DNA of 64,000 nt from a virus. A program made the position numbers and the translations under genes. This document shows, one piece after another, positions 4,473-53,591 of this stretch. The DNA lies in IMG/VR virus record IMGVR_UViG_3300025150_000004, positions 64,001 through 128,000 of that record; one strand, 5' to 3'. The stretch's first letter is position 1. Each line of letters starts with the position of its first letter. A model generated the notes under the pieces. The model saw only the letters and a program-made list of their open reading frames with translations, did no database searches and was not told where the DNA came from.

Positions 4473-4888
4473 TGGCGCTGAAGGACCGCAGAAGGGCCAA
4501 AGCCGAGCAGACCAATCCGGTTGACCGGGAGGTTCAGGGGCACTTGCAGGTAGCCCTCAAGGAGATCGACCGGGCCATGGCCGTTTACGGACGGATCTCC
4601 CGTAGTGCCCGCCAGGAGGACCAGCAGGTCGCCGGGCGGGCTCGGCAGAACAGGGCCATCCTCGAAGCGGCCAAGGCCCAGTTGTCTCGGGTGACCAACC
4701 TGAAGGCGGCTCTCGAACAAGACATTGACCTGCTCCCCGAGACCGTCAGGGAGCAGTTGTCCCGGGAAGCCAGTCTCAAGCGCCGGGCCGAGGATGATGC
4801 CAAGAGGCGGCAGCGCCAGACCGAGGAGTCCGTCCAGAATCTCCTGGCCTCGCTCGGAAAGGGTGCGTCGGGAGCGGCGGCTGAATGA
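4472..4888 (+). CDS. Hypothetical coiled-coil protein
   Basis: TAATG coupling at 4470-4474; its stop overlaps the portal start. Confidence 0.65.
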   Translation: MALKDRRRAKAEQTNPVDREVQGHLQVALKEIDRAMAVYGRISRSARQEDQQVAGRARQNRAILEAAKAQLSRVTNLKAALEQDIDLLPETVREQLSREASLKRRAEDDAKRRQRQTEESVQNLLASLGKGASGAAAE

Positions 4889-6792
4889 GGCGGAACGACC
4901 CCAAGTACACCGTGAAGGTGGCCACCGTCCCCAAACGGGCTGACGTGACCGTCGGCAAGCCTGGGAAGGTGGTGCGGACCGCCATGCGGGCCAAGGTCGC
5001 TTTCCCGATGGCGGGAGGCACCACGCTGGGCTCGGGTGGGAACTTCTACTCTCCCGAGCTTTCGCCGGACTTCCTCGAACTCCCCCAGAGCATCGACGAG
5101 CAGCGGAACTATTACCGCTTCTTCTACGACCACGATCCCTTCGTCGGTCAGGCCATCGACCTCCACAGTGAGCTTCCCCTCTCGAAGCTCCGCCTCCGCA
5201 AGCCCCGGGCGAAAAACAAGGCGTTGGCGGAAGCCTCCATGCGGTTCTGCGAGAGGTGGGTCAAGAGCATCGGCCTGCTCCAACGGCTCCTGGCAATCGT
5301 CCACGACTTTTACCTCATCGGAGAGGTGTTCGTTTTCGCCGAGGACACCAACCCCGAGATGCCCAGGGAGGTCACCCACCAGCCGCACCGGGAGGTGACC
5401 CCGGAAGGCAAGATCATCGACGAGTGGACCGAGAGGGGGGACGCCCGGGAGCGGATGGTCGAGTGGATGAAGAAGAACTACCAGGGCTGGACGGGCCTGC
5501 GTGTTCTTCCTCCCGAGCAGATCCACATCGAGTCGTTCCCGTTCACGGACAAACGGCTCATCGAACTGATCCCCGATTCCAAGACCAAGAGCCTGGTCGA
5601 GCGGGCACGGCAGGGGGACGAGCGGGCGGCCGAGATCGTCGCCACGTACCCGGCCGACATCATCCGGCACGTCCTCGACGGGACCAACATCCCTTTGAAC
5701 ACCAACCCGATGGCGGGGTCGTTCGTCCACTATCTGGCTCGGAAGAGGGCAGATTACGAGCCCCGGGGCAAGAGCCTTCTTCAGCGGGTCCTCCGGGTGC
5801 TCGTGTACCGGGACAAGCTCCGCCAGGCCCAGACAAGCATTGCCTCACGGCACATGACCCCCATCCGCATCGTGTGGGCGGAGGACATGAACGCCGAGCA
5901 GACCGAGGAACTGCGGGAGCAGGTGGACCTGGCCCTTCAGGACCCGGACTTCTCCATCATCGCCAACTTCCAGGTCAACTGGGAGGAGATCGGCGGGGGT
6001 CAGGGGAACCGGCTCCTCGAACTCACGAGCGAGTACGACCTCACCGACCGGCAGATGTACGCAGGGCTCGGGGTTACCGAGTCCCTCCTCTCCGGCGAGT
6101 CGAGCTACTCCGGCGACCGTATCCACCTGGAGGTCATCAACGTCCGCTACCTCCTGCTGCGGGAACTCCTTCAGGACTTCGTGGACCACCACCTCCTCGA
6201 ACCGATGTGCCGTCGGATGGGATTCGTCGAGATCGACGAGGACGGCTACGAGGTGGTCATCCATCCGAGGCTGTCGTTCACCAGGCTGGCCCTACGGGAC
6301 AATCAGGAGACGTTCGACGCCCTGTTCAACCTCTACCAGAAGGGGTCGCTGGACATCGACACCATCCTCGACCTGCTCAACATCGACCCGGACACGGTGC
6401 GGGAGAAGCTGGAGAGGGACTTCGGGACGTTCAACGACGCCACCTTCAACGAGCTTCTCCGAGCCCTCTACAGCCGGGCTGGGGATGCCATCGTCGAGAA
6501 CTCCGACTTCGTCGAGCAGATGGCCGAGCGGATCCACGTCACCTACAAGAAGCCGAAGCCCGAGGGCGTGGCCCGCTTCGCTTCGGTCCAAGGAGACGAT
6601 GGCGAGGCTCAGGACCCGATGGTACTGCTCAAGGGGGCCGTCAAACAGGCCATCAACGAGGTGTGGGCCACCGACCGCCCGCTCACGGGTTCCGATTGGC
6701 CGAGGGCAGCCACCCGGGAGCCCTCGGTTGGCGACCTGGCCCAGCAGGTGGCCGACTTGCAGGCCCAGATCGCCAAGCTCCAGGGTGGCTAG
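4885..6792 (+). CDS. Portal protein
   Basis: 635 aa downstream of terL; N-terminal YRFFYDHDPFVGQAIDLH helix and PRGKSLLQRVL segment typical of portals. Confidence 0.85.
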   Translation: MRRNDPKYTVKVATVPKRADVTVGKPGKVVRTAMRAKVAFPMAGGTTLGSGGNFYSPELSPDFLELPQSIDEQRNYYRFFYDHDPFVGQAIDLHSELPLSKLRLRKPRAKNKALAEASMRFCERWVKSIGLLQRLLAIVHDFYLIGEVFVFAEDTNPEMPREVTHQPHREVTPEGKIIDEWTERGDARERMVEWMKKNYQGWTGLRVLPPEQIHIESFPFTDKRLIELIPDSKTKSLVERARQGDERAAEIVATYPADIIRHVLDGTNIPLNTNPMAGSFVHYLARKRADYEPRGKSLLQRVLRVLVYRDKLRQAQTSIASRHMTPIRIVWAEDMNAEQTEELREQVDLALQDPDFSIIANFQVNWEEIGGGQGNRLLELTSEYDLTDRQMYAGLGVTESLLSGESSYSGDRIHLEVINVRYLLLRELLQDFVDHHLLEPMCRRMGFVEIDEDGYEVVIHPRLSFTRLALRDNQETFDALFNLYQKGSLDIDTILDLLNIDPDTVREKLERDFGTFNDATFNELLRALYSRAGDAIVENSDFVEQMAERIHVTYKKPKPEGVARFASVQGDDGEAQDPMVLLKGAVKQAINEVWATDRPLTGSDWPRAATREPSVGDLAQQVADLQAQIAKLQGG

Positions 6793-6844: not shown

Positions 6845-9800
6845 GTGGCGATTCCTGACCCCATCCTCGAAGCACAGGCCCGGCGGCTCAAGGCACGGCA
6901 CCAGGTCAGGCAGGAGTGGGCCAATCTCGACCACATCCGCCTGGCCCGCTCGTACCAGGAGTACGTCGAGGAGAAGAAGCGGGACAACGAGCGCCCGCTT
7001 CCCAAGGCCGAGTGGGAGAAGTTCCAGGGGAAAGGGAAGTCCGAGTCCAAGGGACTGAAGTCCCAACCGAAGTCGGACCGGGCCAAGGCTTTTCTCTCGA
7101 AGGCCAACTCGGTCATGAGCAAGGCGTTCGAGGCGGCCTCCCACAAGGTCAAAACGTTCATCGCCGATCCGGTCGAGCGGAAGAAGATGACCCGGGAGAT
7201 GGGCCGGAGCGTGAAGAAGAATGCTCCCCGGGCGGCCAAGGCCATGTGGAACGGGTTCAAGGGCGAGGCCAAGGCCATCGCCGTGGATGCCCCTTCCATC
7301 CTGTTCAAGATGGCCAAGGAGCGCCGCAAGCCCACCAAGAAGGAGCTTCACACGCTCTACGGGGTCGGCGTCTACGCTGCCGGGACAGCCTTGGCTTTTT
7401 CGGGAGCCACCCCTCTGTTGGCGGCAGCCAAGGCGTTTGGGCACAGCATCACCCTGCACGCCACGTTCAAGGCTATCCACACGGTCGCCGACGAGATCTT
7501 CCTCGGGACCGAGGCCGTCGAGTCCGTGGCACTCGCTGGGGGCCTCGGTGACAAGCTCCCTGTGATGACGAGCGACATCCCGGGTCTGAACCACATTTGG
7601 GATTTCATGGCGGAGACAGCCTCCCAGGTCACCAAGCTCCCCATGTTGGTCGCCGCTGAGGGTAAGGAGCCAGAGGGCGAGGAGGAGAAGTTCCTCTACG
7701 ACCTCATGCAGCGGATCTACGAGGAGGCGGGCAAGGTCTTCGAGAACCTCACCGACGAGGACATCGAGGCCATCATGGCGCACGGGGTTGATGCCCCGTC
7801 CGGCTCGAAGTCGGCGGCCTATTTCAACTCTAAGGAAGATCGGTTTTTGTCCTATTTGAAAAATAGGACATGCGAACCAACTGCTCTCAGCCAGGATGTA
7901 CCGACCCTGTCCATGCCCGAGGTTTTTGTAGGGCACACCGGCCAAAACCGCAGCCTCGAAAACGAGGTTTCAGGGTTGCTCCAGCCGAATCCGTTTGTGC
8001 GGTCGAGGGTTGCACAAACCCCTATCTCGCCAAGGAGTTCTGTAGGCAGCATTACCATGCCTGGTACAGATACGGGGACCCCTCAAAGCGATTTCGCACC
8101 TCCAACGGGCAAGGGAGGATCAACACGTCCGGGTACAGGGTCATTACGGTTGACGGCCAGCAAGTCCTCGAACACCGGCACGTCATGGAACAACAGCTTG
8201 GCCGGGCTCTCCTCCCAGGAGAGACCGTCCACCATCTTAATGGACAGCGGTCCGACAACCGGCCCGAGAACCTCGAACTCTGGTCGAGGCACCAGCCAGC
8301 CGGGCAGCGAGTCGAAGACAAGGTCCGCTGGGCACGAGAGATTCTCGGCCGATATGGCGACCTCTATCCTGAGAATCGCTAAGAAATTCGAGTTGAACGT
8401 TGGGGATCCAGTTCTTTACGGGAAGTACAAGAACAAGAAGGGTGTGATCACCGGGTTCAAGACGGATGAGAAGTCTGGTGACCCCATCGTAGTCATCGAG
8501 CCCGTCCCAAAGGGCCGAAAGCAGACCAAAGAACTGAAGTTGTTCAAAGTCCGTTTTGACGAAGAGCGGGCCGACCCTGCCAAGAGGGCCGCCGAGATGT
8601 CCAACCGGGCCTCCGTGGCTCTGATGCGAATGCTCTCCGACATCGCTCGTCGCCTGGGGGCGGCCCAGCACGTCTACGTCGTGGGTGGGGCCGTGCGGAA
8701 CTTCGCCATCGGCGAGCCCATCAAAGACATCGACGTGGTGATCGACTCCGTGTCCCTCGGCAAGGACTCGGAGTGGTTCGCCAACCAGGTGGCCCGAGCC
8801 ATTCCCGCCAAGACCCAGGTGGTCACCGACCAGTACGGGGTCAGCAAGGTCTTCGTACTTTCACCCTGGGAGCTTGCAGGGCACCAGATGCAGGACCCGG
8901 CCCAGGCGGCCGTGGAGATCGCCAACGCCCGCAAGGAGAGCTACGGCGGGGCCGCCGGGAAGGGGTACAAGCCGGATACGGTGGAGCCTGCCACCATCGA
9001 GGAGGACGTTCGTCGCCGGGAGTTCACGTTCAACTGCATGGCTGGGGATACCCTCATCCCCACCGAGAAAGGCATCCTTCGCATCGACCAGATCGCCTCT
9101 CGGGACGGGGGGGATTATCAGGACATCCGCCTGACGGTAGCAGGGCAAGATGGCCCTTCGACTGCGGTGGGGTGGCAGTACAGCGGGTTCGCCCCCACCC
9201 TGCGGGTGACGACCGAGTGGGGTCATTCCTTCTCCTGCACGCACCATCATCCGGTTCTGGTTCTTCGGGGGCACAGCCATGAGTGGGTGCAGGCGGATCA
9301 GCTTGAGGAAGGTGACCTGCTCTGTGTGCCCGTGCGGCAGGTGACGAGGCGAACTCCTCTTGCCCTCGACCTGCCTGACCCGGTGCAGCCAAAGCACGGG
9401 CGGTTCAAGGAAGTCTGCAAGCCCGAGGTGATGACGCCTGAGTTGGCGTTCCTGATTGGGTGTGTGTTGGCCGAGGGGTCTAATACCCACAAGCGGGTGT
9501 CATTCAGCAACTCCGACCCGGCCCTCATCTCCCGATACGTCGAGTGTTTCCACGCTACGTTCGGAGTCCAGCCCTCACGCAACAAAGTGGTCGAGAAGGG
9601 GTCCGTCCGTGTTTTGCGGGGGGTGGAGTTCGTAGCCAATGCCGACGGCTACGACATCTACGCCGACAGCAAGGCAGTGGTTGGGTGGCTGGAAGACCTC
9701 GGCCTGTACTGCGGGGGGTCCAAGAACGGCAAGTCCGCTTCCCACCACAAGGTCGTCCCGTGGTCCATCCTGCAAGCCGATGAGCGCAGCCAAGGGGCGT

Positions 9801-12800
9801 TCCTCGCAGCATATCTGGAGGGGGACGGCACCATCCGGCCCGACTCGGGGCGCATTACCTTCTGCTCGGCTTCTCCCCATGTCCGACAGCAGTTGCAGGT
9901 GCTTCTGGGTGCCCACGGCATCTTGAGCAAGGTGAAGGACAGGTTCGTCTACATCAACGCCGTGGACTCTGCCATCCTGTGGGAGAAGATCCAGCCGTGG
10001 ATGGTGACCAAGGGGTTCGACTACACTCAGCGGGACAACAAGGCCCGCACCCGCTACGGCATCCCCGCAGATTACATCCGGGGTTTCCTCGCTGGGCGCA
10101 AGCAGGACACCGGCAGCCGGGCCGTTTACGCCACGGACGGAGATGGATTCCGAACCCTCCCCGATGTCCATGAGCCGGTTCGGAAGGTTCAGCGGCTTCT
10201 CCACGATGCCCATGCCCGAGGAGACTTCGACGGGTTCATGGCGAGCCTCAAGGTCATCAGCCCGGACGAGTTCACCAAGCTCCGGCGGTTGTTCGACCTC
10301 GGCTACCAGTACGTCGAGGTCACGTCGGTTGAAAATGCGGGGCAGCAGGACGTGTTCGACATCTCGATGGGCGAGGGGGTCGAGCCTGCTTTTGTGGCGA
10401 ACGGGGTGGTGGTCCACAACACCCTCATGTGGCGGCTGCTTGACCTCGCCAAGGGGCCGGACAAGGCCGAGATCATCGACCTCACCGGCTGCGGGGTCCA
10501 AGACCTGAAGGACCGACGGATGCAGTGCCCGTCGGACCCGGACAAGACTTTCTCGGACGACCCGAGCCGGATGCTCCGGGCGGTCAAGTTCATCATGAAG
10601 TACGGCATGAAGCTGACCCCGGACACCGAGGCAGCTATCCGCCGGAACCTGCCCAAGCTCAAGCGGGCTCCGTTCGAGGCCATCGCCGTCATCCTCGAAG
10701 ACACCCTGCTCAAGGATCCGGGCACGGCGAAGAAGTCCCTGCCCGTGATGAAGAAGCTCGGCTTGCTGGACACTGTGGCCGAGATGATCCGTGAGAACAA
10801 GGCGTTCCAGGCCCGGATGGAGCGGTGGGTCACCAGCAAGCCCATGCTGTTCCTGTTCGACCTGATGGACCTTGGCCTTCCCCTGGGGGCCAACGTCGGG
10901 TTCCTCAGCCGGGACCAGCAAAAGAGGCTCCGTCAGATCGCCCTTGGGATGCCGGAGGGGGAGCCGGAGCGGCTCCTCGAAGTGCTCCGGCAGCCCGGGA
11001 AGGTCATGGACACCCGGGCACTCATTCAGGAGTTCGGGCTCCAGGGGCGAGAGATCGCCCAGATGCAGAAGGACGTGGGGGTGCGGCTCCTGCTCGACAA
11101 CCCCACCCTGGCCAAGAACCCCAGGGCGTTCACCGACGCAGTGCGTCACGAGTTTGCCCGGCGGAAGACGGCTGGTTCCCCGCTGGTCCAGTTGAACATC
11201 GACTTGGGGGAGGGGCAGAAGGTCGAGAAGGTCATCCCGAGTGCCTCACTGCCTTACCTCATCGACAACGTGCAGGTGAGGCGGGTGGCCGGGGCGTGGA
11301 TCCGGCGTCGGGCTACCCGCATCCGAGGTCGTACCCGCTACCTGGCCATGCTCGATGACGCCTGGGAGCCGGTCCGGGTCAAGCTGGCCAATCCCCTCCT
11401 GCCTCAGCAGTTCGTCCAGACGCTCAAGGCCCTGATCGAGAAGGTGAAGTACAACGAGGCTCGGGGTCTGGGGGACACCGCCGAACTCTGGTTGGAGTGG
11501 CGGGAACTCTTCCAGAAGGGTCGTCAGTGGGGCGATTACGTCATCGACCACACAGCCATCCCGTCCGGCAAGGCCAAGGCCGGGGAGATGGGGGTTCGGG
11601 TCTTCCGAACCACCTACGGGCGGGGCAAGGGGCCTCGCCCCAGCATCGCCGCCTGGCTCAAGAAGAACGAGCGGTACTTCCGGGTGCTGGAGGAGGCGAC
11701 CCGCTGGCCCGAGCGGTCGGAGGGTGACGGCATCTTCAAGCACGGGCCGTTCACGGTACACAACACCGTGGGGGCCTCTGACAAGGAGATCCAGACCGCC
11801 AAGGGAATCATCGACCGAGCACTTCGGGCACTTCCAAAGACCGATGTCCCCGAGATGCGCCAGATGGCCTACGGGGACCTGTACCTGGTCGGCGAGATCA
11901 AGCGGAAGCGGTGGGCCGCCTGGTACATGCCCCAGAAGGACGCCATTTACCTTCGGCCGAAGATCAGCGGCATTTCGGCGGACGATTCCGCCCTGCACCT
12001 GGTTCACGAACTCACCCACCGGCTGTGGGCCAAGAGGCTCCCCGCTTTGGTGAAGACAGCGTGGAGCGCCCACCACTTCCAGATGTCCAACAGCCGCAGT
12101 GCCCTTGGAAGGCTCCCCGAAGCCGGGGAAGTCCTGCCCAAGGAGTTGGTGGTCAACCGGAAGCAGGTCAAGGTCGATAGCTACGACGAACTGGGCCAGG
12201 CCGTGCTCGTGGACGCCAAGGGGGGCGCACCCATCGGCAAGGTGAACCGGGTGAAGCTCCGAGAATGGATGGGCAACATCGAGTTCGTCGGCAAGTTCCC
12301 CTCCATCTACGCCTCCTCAGACGCCGAGGAGCACTTCTGCGAGGCCATGGCCCACAAGGGGATGGGGTCCCTCTCGGCAGACAACCTGGCGGCGTTCAAC
12401 CAGATCGTGCTGGGCAAGGGGGGGCCGACCCAGAGCGTGAAGGTGGGGCTCTCCGCCCCTCCGGGGTGGAAGACCGAGAAGAAGCCGAACGGCTGGGTCA
12501 TCTACACGAACCCTACGGGAACGGTGCGGGTGCAGGACACCCGACGGCCTCATCCCGAGCGCTACCAGTTGCTCGAATGGGCGCAGCCCACCATCGTGCA
12601 GGACGGCAAGAAGGTGCCCCGTGGGCGTCCCCAGTGGTTGGAGCACCACGGGTACTCCAGGCTGCCCGAGGCACTGGCGGCCGGAGTGAAGCTCACGCAG
12701 CGGGGTCGGACGGCCTCGCATCACCACATCCGCAACGCCTGCCCAGCCTGCGGGAACGTCTCCACCTGTCGGTGCCGGGCACCCAAGACGGTCGAGACGC

Positions 12801-15494
12801 ACGACCTCTGCTATGACTGTCGGGAGTCAGCGGTCAGGGTCGCCGCTCGCTACAAGAACAAGAAGGAAGTACCCAAGGCCGACGGCAAGGGGACAACCAC
12901 CGTCTACGAGTACAGCGACAAGCAGGTCCAGCACCGAAACCGGGAGAAAGCCAAGCGAGTCGAGAAGCTCCGAGGCTCCATCCACAAGCTCCGAGCACAG
13001 GTCAAGAAGGATCTGGGGGCCGAGGACGAGAAGACCCGAACCGTCGCACTGGTCGTTGGTCTGATGGATCACACCTACGAGCGGGTCGGTAACGACGAGT
13101 CGGCCAAGGACGGCCACTACGGGGTCACCGGCTGGCAGGTCAAGCACATCACGTTCGGCAAGGGCAAGGCCACCATTTCCTACGTCGGCAAGTCCGGCGT
13201 GAAACACGAGAAGGTCGTGGACGACGCCTCGCTCGTCTCCGCCCTCAAGAAGGCTACCAAAGGGAAGGGGTCGAACGACCGGATCTGTGACGGGGAGGAC
13301 TGCAAGGTCTCCGCTTCGGACGTGAACGCCTACCTCAAGCCGTTCGACATCACGGCCAAGGACATCCGTGGGTTCCATGCCAACACCGAGGTTCAGACCC
13401 GGCTCAAGGCCATCCGCTCCAAGGGTGGCAAGCTCCCCGAGGACAAGAAGGAGCGGGAGAAGAAGCTCAAGGCCGAGTTCAAGCAGGCTCTCGAAGAAGC
13501 TGCCAAGGCCGTCGGCCACGAGCCCTCGACACTCAAGTCCCAGTACCTCGTGCCGGGTCTGGAGGACGAGTTCCTCAAGGGTGGTCAGGTGAGCGACAAG
13601 CTCGACAAGCGGGCCATGTCCCTGGAAGAGGTTCGGGCTCTCAAGCAGGAGATCCTCGCCGAGTTGGGGTGGCGGACTGCCACGAAGACCAAGGGGGAGA
13701 AGGAAGAGGAGGAGGTCGAGCGGATGTCCCGTCCTGCTCCCAAGAAGAAGCCGCCCCGGCAGGATCTTCGGCGGAACCGGATGAAGGACGACGACAAGGA
13801 CACCGATGGCCAGGGGGCCGACAAGGACAAGGATCTGTCCCTCAACTACAAGCGGGTAGCCCGCCTCTACCACGCTGCCGTTCTTCAAGACCTCGGGGAC
13901 CTCGATCTGATGCGTCTCGCTGGAGACAAGCAGCACAAACCTGGCGACGTGTGGAAGACCGAAAAGGGCTGGCGAGGGAAGAAGAAGACCCCGAACCAGG
14001 GAGGGCATTTCGAGGGGAAAACTTTCCCCGACAGGGAGCAGGCTGAGGCTTGGGTCGCCGACCCAGACCCGGAAGGCGAAGACGACCAGGCTCCCGACGA
14101 GGAAGGCAGCCGGGCTCCTGACGAGGAGGGCGACCAGGCTCCTGACGGAGATTCTTCGGATCGGCCCGACCCAAAGGCGGAGGCCCGCAAAGAGCGGGAG
14201 CGGCATCGGAATGAGGTTCGTCGCCGGGGCCAGAACTTCGACAAGTCCCTGGACGCTCTGGTGGACACCATCTCCCCGGAGATGGCTGAGGTTCTGATCG
14301 ACCACCTCCCCAGCGGGGACGCCGACAAAGCCGCCATGGCGGAAGCCTTCGACATCCACCTTCACGTTCTCACCGAGGTGTACCTCGACGACGATAAGGG
14401 CTTCTCGAAGAAGGGGCTCGAAGATGCCGCTGAGGTGGTGTCCCTGTTTGGTAGCCCGCCCGACCCCGAGAAGGGGGAGGAGGACGACGCCAAGTTGGAG
14501 GCCAAGCGGGACGCCGCCCGCAAGGAGAAGCTCAAGGAGTTCGGCGAGAAGACCGCCAAGGAGAAGGGGGAGATCCTCGCCCGCCTGCACTTCGCCACGA
14601 AGGTGGTGGCCGATCCTACGGTCGTGGGTGGGCGGTCCTTGGCAGGGAGGACAGACCCCGAGGCCCTACGTGAGCGGGGGTCCGAGGCCGCCCGTCAGTA
14701 CAGCCGGTCGTCACCAGAGATCCGGGCCATGGCCGCCAAGAACGCCATGACCGCCTTGGAGGGGATGGCAGAGGACGACCCGAACCGGGTGGAGTTGGAC
14801 GCCATCGTGGACGGTCTGGCCATCGCCGCAGGCTCCAAGGGGGAGACCTTGGAGGTGGACGGCAAAAAGCTCCGGCCCCGTGCCTCCAAGGGCCACCAGG
14901 TCTTGTACGACCACCTCATCAAGGCTGGGAAGCAGGACATCCTGACCGGCACCATGCACGACCTCTACGGTCCCGAGGGGCGTGCAGCCGTGTCCGAAGC
15001 CCTGGACACGATGGATGACAAGGAGTTGGCCGCCTACGGCAAGACGGGGCACTTCTCGGAGCTTGCGTCCAAGCTCACCGACTCCAAGGTCGGTGAGGAG
15101 CAGAAGGCGTTCATCCGTGGGTTCCTCAAGCGCCAAGGGATCGAGGACAACGGCCCAGTCGTTCATCGAGGCGGCCGAATCCGAGTCGGGAATCGCAGGC
15201 GAGAAGCTCGAAGCTCAGTGGCAGGACCACATCTCCAAGCACCCCGAGGCCAAGGCGTGGGATGACCGCATTCTCTCGGCTGCCCAGAAGGGCGGGGCCG
15301 ATCAGGAGGCCCTGGAGAAGGAGTACCTGGTCTGGCGGTCCCAGATGTACCTCGAATGGCTCCGTCTGATGGGCATCGACCTCCCCAAGGGAAACCCGGA
15401 GCGTGCCCGGCACGAGCACATCACCGACACCAAGGACCCCACACTGCTCGGGGAGAAGCTCGTTCCCCAGGGGGAGGACAAAAAGACAGGCTGA
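6845..15494 (+). CDS. Giant polyvalent protein: N-terminal helical domain, SH3/KOW-like domain, class II CCA-type nucleotidyltransferase (intein-containing), zincin metallopeptidase, Zn finger, DNA topoisomerase IB, acidic C-terminal domain
   Basis: NTase motifs GGAVRN, DID, EDVRRREFTFN, DDPSRMLRAVKF; HELTH plus EEHFCE; TopoIB R-K-R-H-Y set (ERVG, GKSG, DIRG, VGH, SQYL). The ORF is open 6845-15265 and the natural C-terminus continues in another frame to 15494. An internal ATG at 8354 is a possible separate start. Confidence 0.8.
7848..7870 (+). promoter_or_regulatory. RBS-sequestering hairpin upstream of the HNH gene
   Basis: Perfect 10-bp stem TGTCCTATTT-GAA-AAATAGGACA that includes AGGA and the A of the ATG. 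Confidence 0.7.
7870..8382 (+). mobile_element. HNH homing endonuclease nested out of frame inside the giant ORF
   Basis: Two Cx4C..CxxH Zn motifs, GYRVI, EHRHVME..LGR.L...ETVHHLNG.RSDNRPENLELW. Confidence 0.92.
9035..10420 (+). mobile_element. Intein with LAGLIDADG endonuclease (462 aa) in the nucleotidyltransferase
   Basis: Starts CMAGDTLI and ends VVHN before +1 Thr; LIGCVLAEG and FLAAYLEGDG motifs; splits the RREFTFN|TL motif. Confidence 0.95.
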
Positions 15495-52082: not shown

Positions 52083-52984
52083 GCTGGACCCCCGAGCAGT
52101 CGGGAGACCTTGGCCTGAAGTTCGGTGACCTCCCGGGACGCCTTTTTGCCCTCCTTGGGCAGGGGTAGACCCGAGCCCCGGAGGACTTCCTCGACCACCC
52201 GGTCGAAACTCCAGTCGGGCACCTGCTCGGCGAGCACCTGGAGGACGGACCGCAGGCCCTCAACCTCGAATCGGGTGAGGTACATCCCGTTGAGCCGGTA
52301 GTCCTCGAACGCCTCCCAGCACCAGGGGACCCACTCCTTGACGACCTCGGCGATGGCGTTGGCGTAGGAGCGGATCTCCAGTTGAGCGTGCGGATCCATG
52401 CGGAGGCTGAGGAAGTGGAACAGGTTGTGGAGGTCGCTGGACCAGACCTTGGCGGTGTAGATGTTCACGGGAAGCACGCATCTTGCAAGCTCCCGAGCCA
52501 CCCCGCTCTCCAGCGCCCGTTCGTAGGCTCGGTAGGCTTCGGAGCAGCTTCTCCGAAGCTCGGTCTGGTAGGCCACCACGTCGTCTTCAGGGAGGTGCCC
52601 GTCTCGACCTTGCTTGTTGCTGGTGCTCTGAGCCCGCACGACCTCGGAGTCTGGGATGTAGAACTCTTCCGGCAGGACGCTGTACCGGGCTGACACCTCG
52701 TTGAGAGATGCCATCCGGTGCCGAACCCATTGACGCTCCACGAAAATTGGGAGCTTCACCTCCAGCTTGATTCGGGCCTGCTCGAACGGCGAGGTGTGCC
52801 TCGACCTCATCAGGTAGCGGAGAAGGCTACGGTCGTCGTTGGTTTTCTTGGTCCCCTTGGCGTAGGAGACCCGTGCGGCCTGTACAACTGAGTCGTCATC
52901 CCCCATCACGTCCACGAGCATGATGTAGCCGTGATCGAGCACAGGGATGGGCTCTTGAAATCGTTTGAGGTGTTCAGGAATCAT
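52079..52984 (-). CDS. thyX: FAD-dependent thymidylate synthase
   Basis: AARVSY, HTSPFE, RQWVRHRMASLNEVSARY, AQLEIR. Confidence 0.97.
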   Translation of the reverse strand: MIPEHLKRFQEPIPVLDHGYIMLVDVMGDDDSVVQAARVSYAKGTKKTNDDRSLLRYLMRSRHTSPFEQARIKLEVKLPIFVERQWVRHRMASLNEVSARYSVLPEEFYIPDSEVVRAQSTSNKQGRDGHLPEDDVVAYQTELRRSCSEAYRAYERALESGVARELARCVLPVNIYTAKVWSSDLHNLFHFLSLRMDPHAQLEIRSYANAIAEVVKEWVPWCWEAFEDYRLNGMYLTRFEVEGLRSVLQVLAEQVPDWSFDRVVEEVLRGSGLPLPKEGKKASREVTELQAKVSRLLGGPA

Positions 52985-53591
52985 CCTGCCTGTCCTTGCA
53001 TTCGTAGGTGCCCGTCTCTCGGTTGAACATCAGAAAACCCGAACGAAGCAGGCGGAAGGCCACCCCCTGTAGAGAGGAGTGCGCTTGCCGATGCCTTGTC
53101 CGATCCGTCAGCCACAGGTTCTCCGGGGCGTTGTTGGTTTTGTCTCCGTCGATGTGGTGAACGACCTCGGTCGGGAGAAGGGTTCTGCCCAGAGCCCCCT
53201 CCATGACCACCACATGTTCCTTGCGATAGTTTACCCATCCTGAACCGGAACCCTGCCGCCCAGGGACGACGTTGACCATCACGTACCCATGGTGGTCAAC
53301 GTAGCGACCGCCCTTCCAACAGGGGTGGTTCTCCCGGGTCCGTTGACGGTTGCGCTCAGCAACAGCCTTGTTGGTTGTCCCACGGCTGGATTTCCCAATG
53401 CGCCTGGCCACACAGGGCTGGCAGAACGTCTCTCCCGTCCAGCCCTGTTTGCGTTGACCCTGGACGTAGTTGTTCCAGTTGGTCTCGGACCGTTTTCCGC
53501 AGTCGTCGCAGATGAGCGCCACACGTTTGATGCTGCCCTTGGTCAGTAGCGCAATGGGGGTCCCGTCCATTGCTTTGTCCGATGCAAGCAT
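52974..53591 (-). mobile_element. HNH homing endonuclease upstream of thyX
   Basis: CDDC..CQPC, HPCWKGGR, EHVVVME..LGR.L..EVVHHIDGDKTNN..ENL. Confidence 0.9.

Follow-up and report, generated by a model that had tools for sequence, protein, structure and literature searches.

An HNH endonuclease gene hidden within an open, in-frame insertion in the polyvalent protein gene of an uncultured jumbo phage

A stop-free, in-frame insertion of 202 amino acids, the ShiLan domain, was described in mycobacteriophage DNA methylases in 2025 (Arsenault, Gosselin and Gogarten 2025, Genes 16:178, PMC11855218). This insertion hides an HNH endonuclease gene that lies out of frame, starts at a GTG codon 18 bp into the insert and ends at a TAA within its last four bases (PMC11855218). 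Neither an intron nor an intein could be detected, the product of the host frame is predicted to be disordered, and the first part of the insert bears a faint resemblance to the 3' flank; a second case was found in Pacc40 gp60 (PMC11855218). Here we describe a comparable element in a 64,000-nucleotide (nt) stretch of viral DNA (bases 64001-128000 of the 142,891-bp IMG/VR virus record IMGVR_UViG_3300025150_000004; hereafter the window), where an HNH gene lies inside an uninterrupted reading frame encoding a 2806-residue protein. We consider it likely that a homing-type HNH cassette has entered a linker of this protein with the help of neither intron nor intein, and that the host frame has been kept open and is read through. 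CheckV rates the 142,891-bp record as 27% complete, so that only part of a very large phage genome is represented; the source is an uncultured jumbo phage, with its nearest relative in a marine (TARA) metagenome.

Other selfish endonucleases offer further points of comparison. Those of group I introns, such as the HNH enzyme I-HmuI, and those of HNH and LAGLIDADG inteins likewise occupy a precise site inside a host gene, but differ from the present case, in which there is no ribozyme match, no set of splicing residues and an endonuclease encoded outside the host frame. Gene-splitting homing endonucleases (Aeh1 nrdA/mobE, T4 gene 60/39 mobA and split gp43; PMC2988022) resemble it more closely in being intron-less and intein-less HNH genes inside a coding region. 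However, each host gene there is divided into two open reading frames (ORFs) with their own stop and start, whereas a single continuous frame passes through the endonuclease gene here. Hairpins that sequester the ribosome-binding site (RBS) control I-TevI, I-TevII, I-TevIII, segB and Aeh1 mobE (Edgell et al. 2010, PMC2988022). The element in the window and its immediate surroundings comprise the following features.

6845-15265, plus strand: host ORF, 2806 amino acids, a post-portal polyvalent protein
6845-7819, plus strand: N-terminal module (N-module) of the polyvalent protein, ending ...AHGVDAPSGSKSAA; GC content at third codon positions (GC3) 0.87
7820-8380, plus strand: inserted cassette of 561 nt, or 187 codons; a stop-free linker rich in Ser, Thr, Gly and Pro in the host frame
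7820-7869, plus strand: AT-rich leader of the HNH gene, 50 nt, open in the host frame only; third-frame stop at 7857
7823-7833, plus strand: left arm of inverted repeat I8, TTCAACTCTAA, just inside the left end of the insert
7848-7857 and 7861-7870, plus strand: perfect 10-bp hairpin (TGTCCTATTT GAA AAATAGGACA), inverted repeat I7
7870-8382, plus strand: gene for an HNH_3-family endonuclease of 170 amino acids (ORF of 513 nt), with two N-terminal Cys/His zinc-finger-like motifs
8354-8356, plus strand: host-frame ATG 27 nt before the insert end, a candidate restart codon (Met504)
8381-8560, plus strand: small beta module of KOW/SH3-like type (KKFELNVGDPVLYGKYKNKKG...), immediately following the insert
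8387-8397, plus strand: right arm of inverted repeat I8, TTCGAGTTGAA, just outside the right end of the insert

Relatives of the host protein were collected by an exhaustive HMMER search with the host-frame protein encoded by 6845-9079, which yielded 645 sequences. The closest of these, P0004 (2740 amino acids, 71% identity; locus L003 on a TARA ocean contig), lacks the insertion. Its N-module is fused directly to the next module (...AHGVGAGGGGSKAA/KTFTLEKGDP..., with the slash marking the junction), where the window reads ...AHGVDAPSGSKSAA/YFNSKED...SILRIA/KKFELNVGDP.... The junction codons are GCT GCC/AAG ACC in L003 and GCG GCC/TAT...GCT/AAG AAA in the window, and by alignment to L003 and P0004 the insertion begins after GCC (Ala, 7817-7819) and ends before AAG (Lys, 8381-8383). 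The insertion is also absent from P0005, P0007 and P0008 and from all other relatives found. An initial annotation of this DNA had proposed alignment to HNH-less relatives as a means of defining the insertion and testing whether its length is a multiple of three, which at 561 nt it is. The exact limits could be off by a few codons, since the insert's initial residues (A-YFN) resemble the family A-x-Y-F motif with which the KOW-like module opens. The GC content drops at 7800, from ~0.64 to 0.48-0.58, and is 0.57 for the insert overall against 0.64 for the host gene. Each arm of I8 is 11 nt long, with 10 of 11 positions complementary, and a hand estimate gives a chance of ~1% that arms would lie so near both ends. 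The 2806-residue protein is identical in the JGI/IMG, ENA and Logan assemblies, and over 10,421 nt the window does not differ from the Logan contig of SRR6240789. Since the HNH frame itself is intact, the 50-nt leader, with its T5 and A5 runs, is the sole place where an insertion or deletion could alter the reading.

The hidden gene matches Pfam HNH_3 (1.4e-10) and phrog_20891 (6e-26) and has 644 homologues at E<=1e-10. Alignments to these span from HNH residue 1-5 to ~165, that is, nearly its whole length, and the gene is therefore complete, in agreement with the initial annotation, which had recognized it in a different frame of the same strand. In a set of 5.8 billion proteins the closest homologue (P0154, 61% identity) is the product of a free-standing gene; other best matches reach 53% in viral contigs and 58% over residues 43-162 in metagenome contigs. 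The HNH frame is -1 relative to that of the host, such that host codons begin one base after HNH codons (host = HNH + 1). Upstream of its ATG the HNH frame is closed by TAA at 7831 and TAG at 7864, and the third frame contains nine stops within 7700-8500. The host frame has none in this interval, so that its 187 insert codons are open (about 180 had been noted) and the upstream domain has no stop of its own, being part of the single ORF 6845-15265. The spacing previously reported also holds: exactly 50 nt precede the HNH ATG and none follow its stop, as the TAA comprises the last base of the insert and the first two bases of the host Lys codon.

No sign of an intron was detected. Rfam models were scanned at E<=10 against 7000-9500 and against the 661-nt stretch 7770-8430 alone, for which laxer filters apply, and returned no intron family and no Intron_gpI; the covariance models detected no group I ribozyme core (P3-P9). 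Nor does the insert resemble an intein. In the host frame it starts with Tyr and ends with Ala (RIA), followed by Lys, and the splicing residues expected at intein ends (Cys/Ser, His-Asn and a +1 Cys/Ser/Thr) are absent; Pfam gives no Hint or intein match at the insert, the solitary intein of the protein being at residues 746-1192. The earlier exclusion of both kinds of element is thus upheld. It could still be supposed that the insert is removed from the mRNA, by self-splicing or in some other way, as an RNA element that escaped detection; it would then be a degenerate or novel intron, its core overlapping the HNH ORF and its ends perhaps paired by the inverted repeat 7823-7833/8387-8397. HNH genes are common in phage group I introns (PMC11855218), the repeat does flank the insert with 10 of 11 positions paired, and boundaries with a U before and a G at the end can be drawn, the segment 7821-8378 also being a multiple of three. 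Against this, the Rfam scans were negative even on the short stretch and the insert outside the HNH ORF amounts to 50 nt on the 5' side, of which the RBS hairpin takes up 23, and to 0 nt on the 3' side. Furthermore, a spliced insert needs no stop-free host frame, yet the codon usage described below indicates that this frame is under selection. We regard excision as quite improbable.

Translational bypass of the gene-60 type was considered as a separate candidate and rejected: the gap would be 561 nt, no candidate take-off codon is followed by a stop, and matched codons for take-off and landing are lacking.

The codons of the HNH gene bear a frame-specific signature. A host-frame T at the first codon position can come only from HNH Leu, Val, Ile and Met codons. 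None of the 21 Leu and Val codons of the HNH gene ends in a purine, all 10 Leu codons being CTC or CTT and all 11 Val codons GTC or GTT, and the three Ile codons are all ATC or ATT. CTY and GTY (where Y is a pyrimidine) are the sole Leu and Val choices that can never yield TAx or TGx in the host (+1) frame. Host genes of the phage use purine-ending codons for 42% of Leu and 49% of Val, giving 0/21 a probability of 2.8e-6. Purine endings are as frequent as in the host among the HNH Ala, Gly, Pro, Thr, Ser and Arg codons, and the TGN codons of the host frame over the HNH ORF all arise from HNH Met codons. Purine-ending Leu and Val codons in the sequences used for comparison were as follows.

160 homologous HNH genes at other loci: median 0.54, minimum 0.22, none at 0
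Second HNH gene of the phage: 15/29, a normal usage
Intein: 41/80
LAGLIDADG-methyltransferase: 71/116
247 host windows of 170 codons: minimum 0.22

The likelihood of an open frame arising by accident was also estimated directly. Synonymous resampling of the HNH gene left the host frame open in 8% of cases with host usage and in 0.2-1.6% when GC3 was matched, and a shuffled leader was open in the host frame in 25%. The joint neutral odds are ~0.7%, being the product of ~0.08 (open ORF), 0.25 (open leader) and 1/3 (in frame). Among the 160 homologous loci, seven have an alternative frame open across the HNH gene and none has the gene embedded in a longer ORF. These values bear on the proposal that a gene already in decay acquired the insertion recently, to neutral or harmful effect, and that the open frame is a high-GC accident; the initial annotation had itself cautioned that open frames of this length arise by chance in high-GC DNA. 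Long alternative open frames are indeed plentiful in the window, the GC content of which is 63%; moreover, a 5-nt frameshift lies near the end of the giant ORF and one copy of the insertion is known. The neutral odds given above stand against chance and decay, as do the intact upstream modules, intein and catalytic domains (Pfam) and, above all, a Leu/Val bias of 0/21 that is matched by none of the 160 homologues and none of the 247 host windows. We therefore consider such an accident very improbable; this frame-specific bias indicates that the open host frame is maintained by selection rather than by chance. The same bias argues against splicing and against a simple split gene, neither of which needs a stop-free host frame.

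The product of the host frame across the insert is, as first described, a linker rich in Ser, Thr, Pro and Gly and bracketed by KSA and RIA, with 56% S/T/P/G/N/Q and 20% hydrophobic residues. AlphaFold2, supplied with the alignment of relatives, assigned the insert a predicted local distance difference test (pLDDT) score of 39-50, against mostly 65-91 for the end of the N-module, while the beta strands of the KOW-like module were predicted with 70-90. The insert is thus predicted to form a disordered, 187-residue spacer. The suggestion that a head protease removes this linker found no backing, as Pfam confirmed no peptidase family in the polyprotein.

The site itself is one at which relatives vary. 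They possess at this junction a Gly-rich linker (P0004), an extra domain (~200 amino acids in P0008) or a gene boundary. In L164 the N-module gene ends and, after 3 nt, the downstream gene starts with MANYFKVGDP; this MANYF... start of separate downstream genes is equivalent to ~residue 513 here. Several relatives have stand-alone N-modules of ~300 amino acids. P0005 links the flanking modules directly, without the KOW-like module, and P0007 has lost most of its N-module. On the strength of these sequence comparisons, the N-module/KOW-like junction is a natural module boundary and a hotspot of modular change. That the insertion is harmless would be explained by the disorder of the added spacer and by its position, at which a linker, a domain or a break between genes is tolerated. 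By eye, the ~200-residue domain of P0008 and P0015 carries HxT-like motifs and looks 2H-phosphoesterase-like. In P0040 the order is reversed, with the KOW-like module first.

The variability of this site also bears on the possibility that the cassette splits the polyprotein gene into pieces, as mobE splits nrdA in Aeh1. The downstream part would then be made from ATG 8354, the N-module with its junk tail would be dispensable or work alone, and the open frame would be incidental. The two parts are indeed separate genes in relatives (L164, and stand-alone P0014, P0071 and others), and an in-frame ATG lies 27 nt before the end of the insert, where the initial annotation had noted it as a possible restart codon. 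The presence of the codon is confirmed, but restart is unsupported: the sole purine-rich stretch (GAGAG) ends 13 nt upstream and there is no well-spaced Shine-Dalgarno sequence. Neither of the marks of a split gene, an upstream part with its own stop and a downstream part with its own start and RBS, is present; as the host frame has no stop, ribosomes from upstream must run on, and the closest relative, L003, is fused. The avoidance of purine-ending Leu and Val codons would, in addition, have no reason if read-through were irrelevant. A split gene is, in our view, unlikely.

The start of the HNH gene is associated with a potential control element. The hairpin at 7848-7870 covers an AGGA ribosome-binding site and the A of the HNH ATG; it has a folding energy of -10.9 kcal/mol (z = -4.4), only 1 of 200 shuffles folds as well, and it is present in the minimum-free-energy fold of 7790-7900. 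Neither a sigma-70-like promoter nor a terminator was found in a scan of 7500-8700. By analogy with the RBS-sequestering hairpins of Aeh1 mobE, T4 segB and I-TevI (PMC2988022), we infer that the HNH protein is made at a low or timed level by internal initiation at ATG 7870.

These observations are best accommodated by a model of a hidden cassette and host read-through. A free-standing-type HNH cassette of 561 nt, composed of the 50-nt leader and the 513-nt ORF, would have entered the linker between the N-module and the KOW-like module, and the host gene would survive since the insert is a multiple of three and stop-free in the host frame. Ribosomes would read straight through to give a polyprotein with an extra disordered spacer of 187 residues. 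Selection would keep the frame open by confining Leu and Val to CTY and GTY and by limiting TAx and TGx to those forced by Met. The HNH protein would be made separately, from a start that is normally locked in the hairpin, leading to low or timed expression of the kind likened to that of T4 I-TevI and segB and of Aeh1 mobE. The enzyme would presumably cut HNH-less alleles of co-infecting relatives, and repair would copy the cassette in. The initial annotation had likewise proposed a homing element tolerated through an open polyprotein frame, a view strengthened by the precise in-frame insertion relative to an HNH-less gene and by the codon bias.

A number of points weigh against this model. 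When the synonymous codons of the HNH gene are permuted among themselves, the host frame stays open in 69% of cases; the signal therefore resides in the set of codons and not in their order, and permutation is uninformative as a null. A donor genome with an extreme preference for CTC and GTC would mimic the signature, although no such preference was seen among the 160 homologues. The AGGA is merely 1 nt from the ATG, a poor Shine-Dalgarno spacing, and Rfam scans could miss a ribozyme of an undescribed type. Nor is this copy of the gene pristine, as the giant ORF has, close to its 3' end, a deletion of 5 nt that shifts the frame relative to two of its relatives. Lastly, the insertion is a single copy. 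No second, diverged copy was found in searches for close HNH copies, for the host-frame linker peptide and for the junction strings. No protein was found to share the linker peptide, which is weak evidence given that only proteins of 329-2000 amino acids were searched, and exact junction strings were not found in viral and genome collections.

A comparison with the ShiLan and Pacc40 elements shows extensive likeness. Each adds ~190-200 codons in frame to a phage gene without introducing a stop, and each contains a complete zinc-finger and HNH gene in another frame that starts a few tens of nucleotides in and has its TAA at the last bases. All lack a detectable intron or intein, have a predicted disordered product and an insert start that echoes the 3' flank, and their HNH cores are homologous. 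In gp66 of phage Starcevich, which we re-checked, an open HNH frame spans 2303-2857 of L167, and the methylase frame continues across it as an S/T/A/P-rich sequence. There, too, the host frame is HNH + 1, and GTC is used for all five Val codons that precede an A-initial codon; the HNH core is 54% identical to that of the window over 67 amino acids (pairwise E 5e-20). The insertion in the window is absent from relatives, a multiple of three, open in the host frame and predicted to be disordered, and it contains a complete HNH gene without intron or intein. By its sequence, therefore, the element belongs to the ShiLan-type hidden HNH elements described in 2025 and is not a new kind.

There are, nevertheless, clear differences. 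The host gene is a methylase in the ShiLan case and a post-portal polyvalent protein here, and the site lies among conserved catalytic residues there but in an inter-module linker, a gene boundary in some relatives, here. A GTG with proposed leaderless initiation is replaced by an ATG behind a strong RBS-sequestering hairpin, and a temperate mycobacteriophage by a fragment of an uncultured jumbo phage. Starcevich avoids purine-ending Leu and Val codons only at sites at risk, whereas avoidance is total here (0/21). Finally, only one copy is known here, so that active homing is putative. New in the window are the host gene (a polyvalent virion-cargo protein) and the distant phage lineage, and the element shows an unusually complete codon signature and a T4-like hairpin.

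The completeness of the signature raises the further, tentative possibility, which we hold to be less probable than not by some distance, that the HNH gene comes from a lineage specialized for read-through, a portable and frame-neutral cassette. Purine endings are avoided even at the nine Leu and Val sites where no stop can now arise and, because they are avoided everywhere, the cassette is stop-proof in the +1 frame whatever mutates nearby.

The remaining features of the window that concern this locus are listed below.

4885-6792: portal gene (phrog_16240), directly upstream of the giant ORF
8561-15265, plus strand: rest of the polyvalent protein, with Pfam PolyA_pol, Intein_splicing, LAGLIDADG_3 and Topoisom_I
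9080-10420, plus strand: canonical LAGLIDADG intein, ORF residues 746-1192, following RRREFTFN in the nucleotidyltransferase module
52974-53591, minus strand: second HNH_3 gene, 205 amino acids (9.7e-09), 56% identical to the first over the core

Polyvalent proteins are multi-domain phage effectors with genes beside those of the head, and are presumed to be packaged and injected (Iyer et al. 2017, PMC5512222). The host ORF resembles them in being a multi-domain string next to the portal gene, with a nucleotidyltransferase, a type IB topoisomerase and other modules. By Pfam, PolyA_pol is the head domain of a class II nucleotidyltransferase, interrupted by the LAGLIDADG intein, and a type IB topoisomerase core (Topoisom_I) lies in the same 2806-residue ORF. 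By analogy, the host protein is probably packaged in the virion. The N-module is homologous to P0004 residues 1-~385 and to stand-alone proteins of ~300 amino acids (P0014, P0054, P0071, P0111, P0127 and P0138). It had no match in Pfam and PHROG searches, none above noise in an ESM-Atlas look-up and no related loci in IMG/VR, and tblastn of the host region against INPHARED phages gave distant nucleotidyltransferase matches only. The KOW-like module is retained in P0004, P0007, P0008, P0024, P0029, P0040 and P0069 and matched no Pfam family. Its GC content of 0.49 and GC3 of 0.70 compare with 0.64 and 0.87 for the host gene. The module may have come with the HNH cassette from its donor as a co-conversion tract, although 60 codons are too few for certainty.

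Several further observations concern the same gene and its surroundings. The intein has a disjunct distribution, in the same host gene as the hidden HNH gene, being absent from P0004, P0005, P0007, P0024 and P0029 (FTFN/TLMW) and present in P0027 (FTFNCMAGDTLIPT). The polyprotein has, at 11900-12300, HELTH...EEHFCE motifs suggestive of a zincin-like peptidase module; Pfam at E<=1 gave no peptidase family across this HExxH region (11501-12700). At 15140-15160 the giant ORF (GAC A ACG GCC CAG) is 5 nt shorter than in P0004 and P0007 (GAC ATG ACC ACG GCC CAG), which shifts the frame, such that the last ~120 conserved residues fall out of frame and the ORF closes at 15265 after a junk tail. This deletion is common to all three assemblies; a genuine frameshift mutation, a recoding site or a gene break could each account for it. 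The second HNH_3 gene appears free-standing and overlaps the start of the next minus-strand ORF by 11 nt.

The locus provides an independent example, far outside the actinobacteriophages, of homing endonuclease genes that reside inside coding genes without intron or intein. The 2025 study left translation through the insert undecided (PMC11855218), and the codon signature supplies a proof, from sequence only, that the openness of the frame is selected. The Leu/Val test could be used in genome screens for this class and in correcting annotations that call only the giant ORF or only the nuclease. Inter-module linkers of polyvalent proteins would, on this evidence, be safe harbours for selfish DNA. 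If the HNH gene does derive from a lineage specialized for read-through, the cassette could enter any tolerant coding linker, and overprinting with read-through would join introns and inteins as a third strategy evolved by homing elements, one with rules of its own: a host frame at HNH + 1, an ORF that fills the insert to its last base and a start locked in a hairpin.

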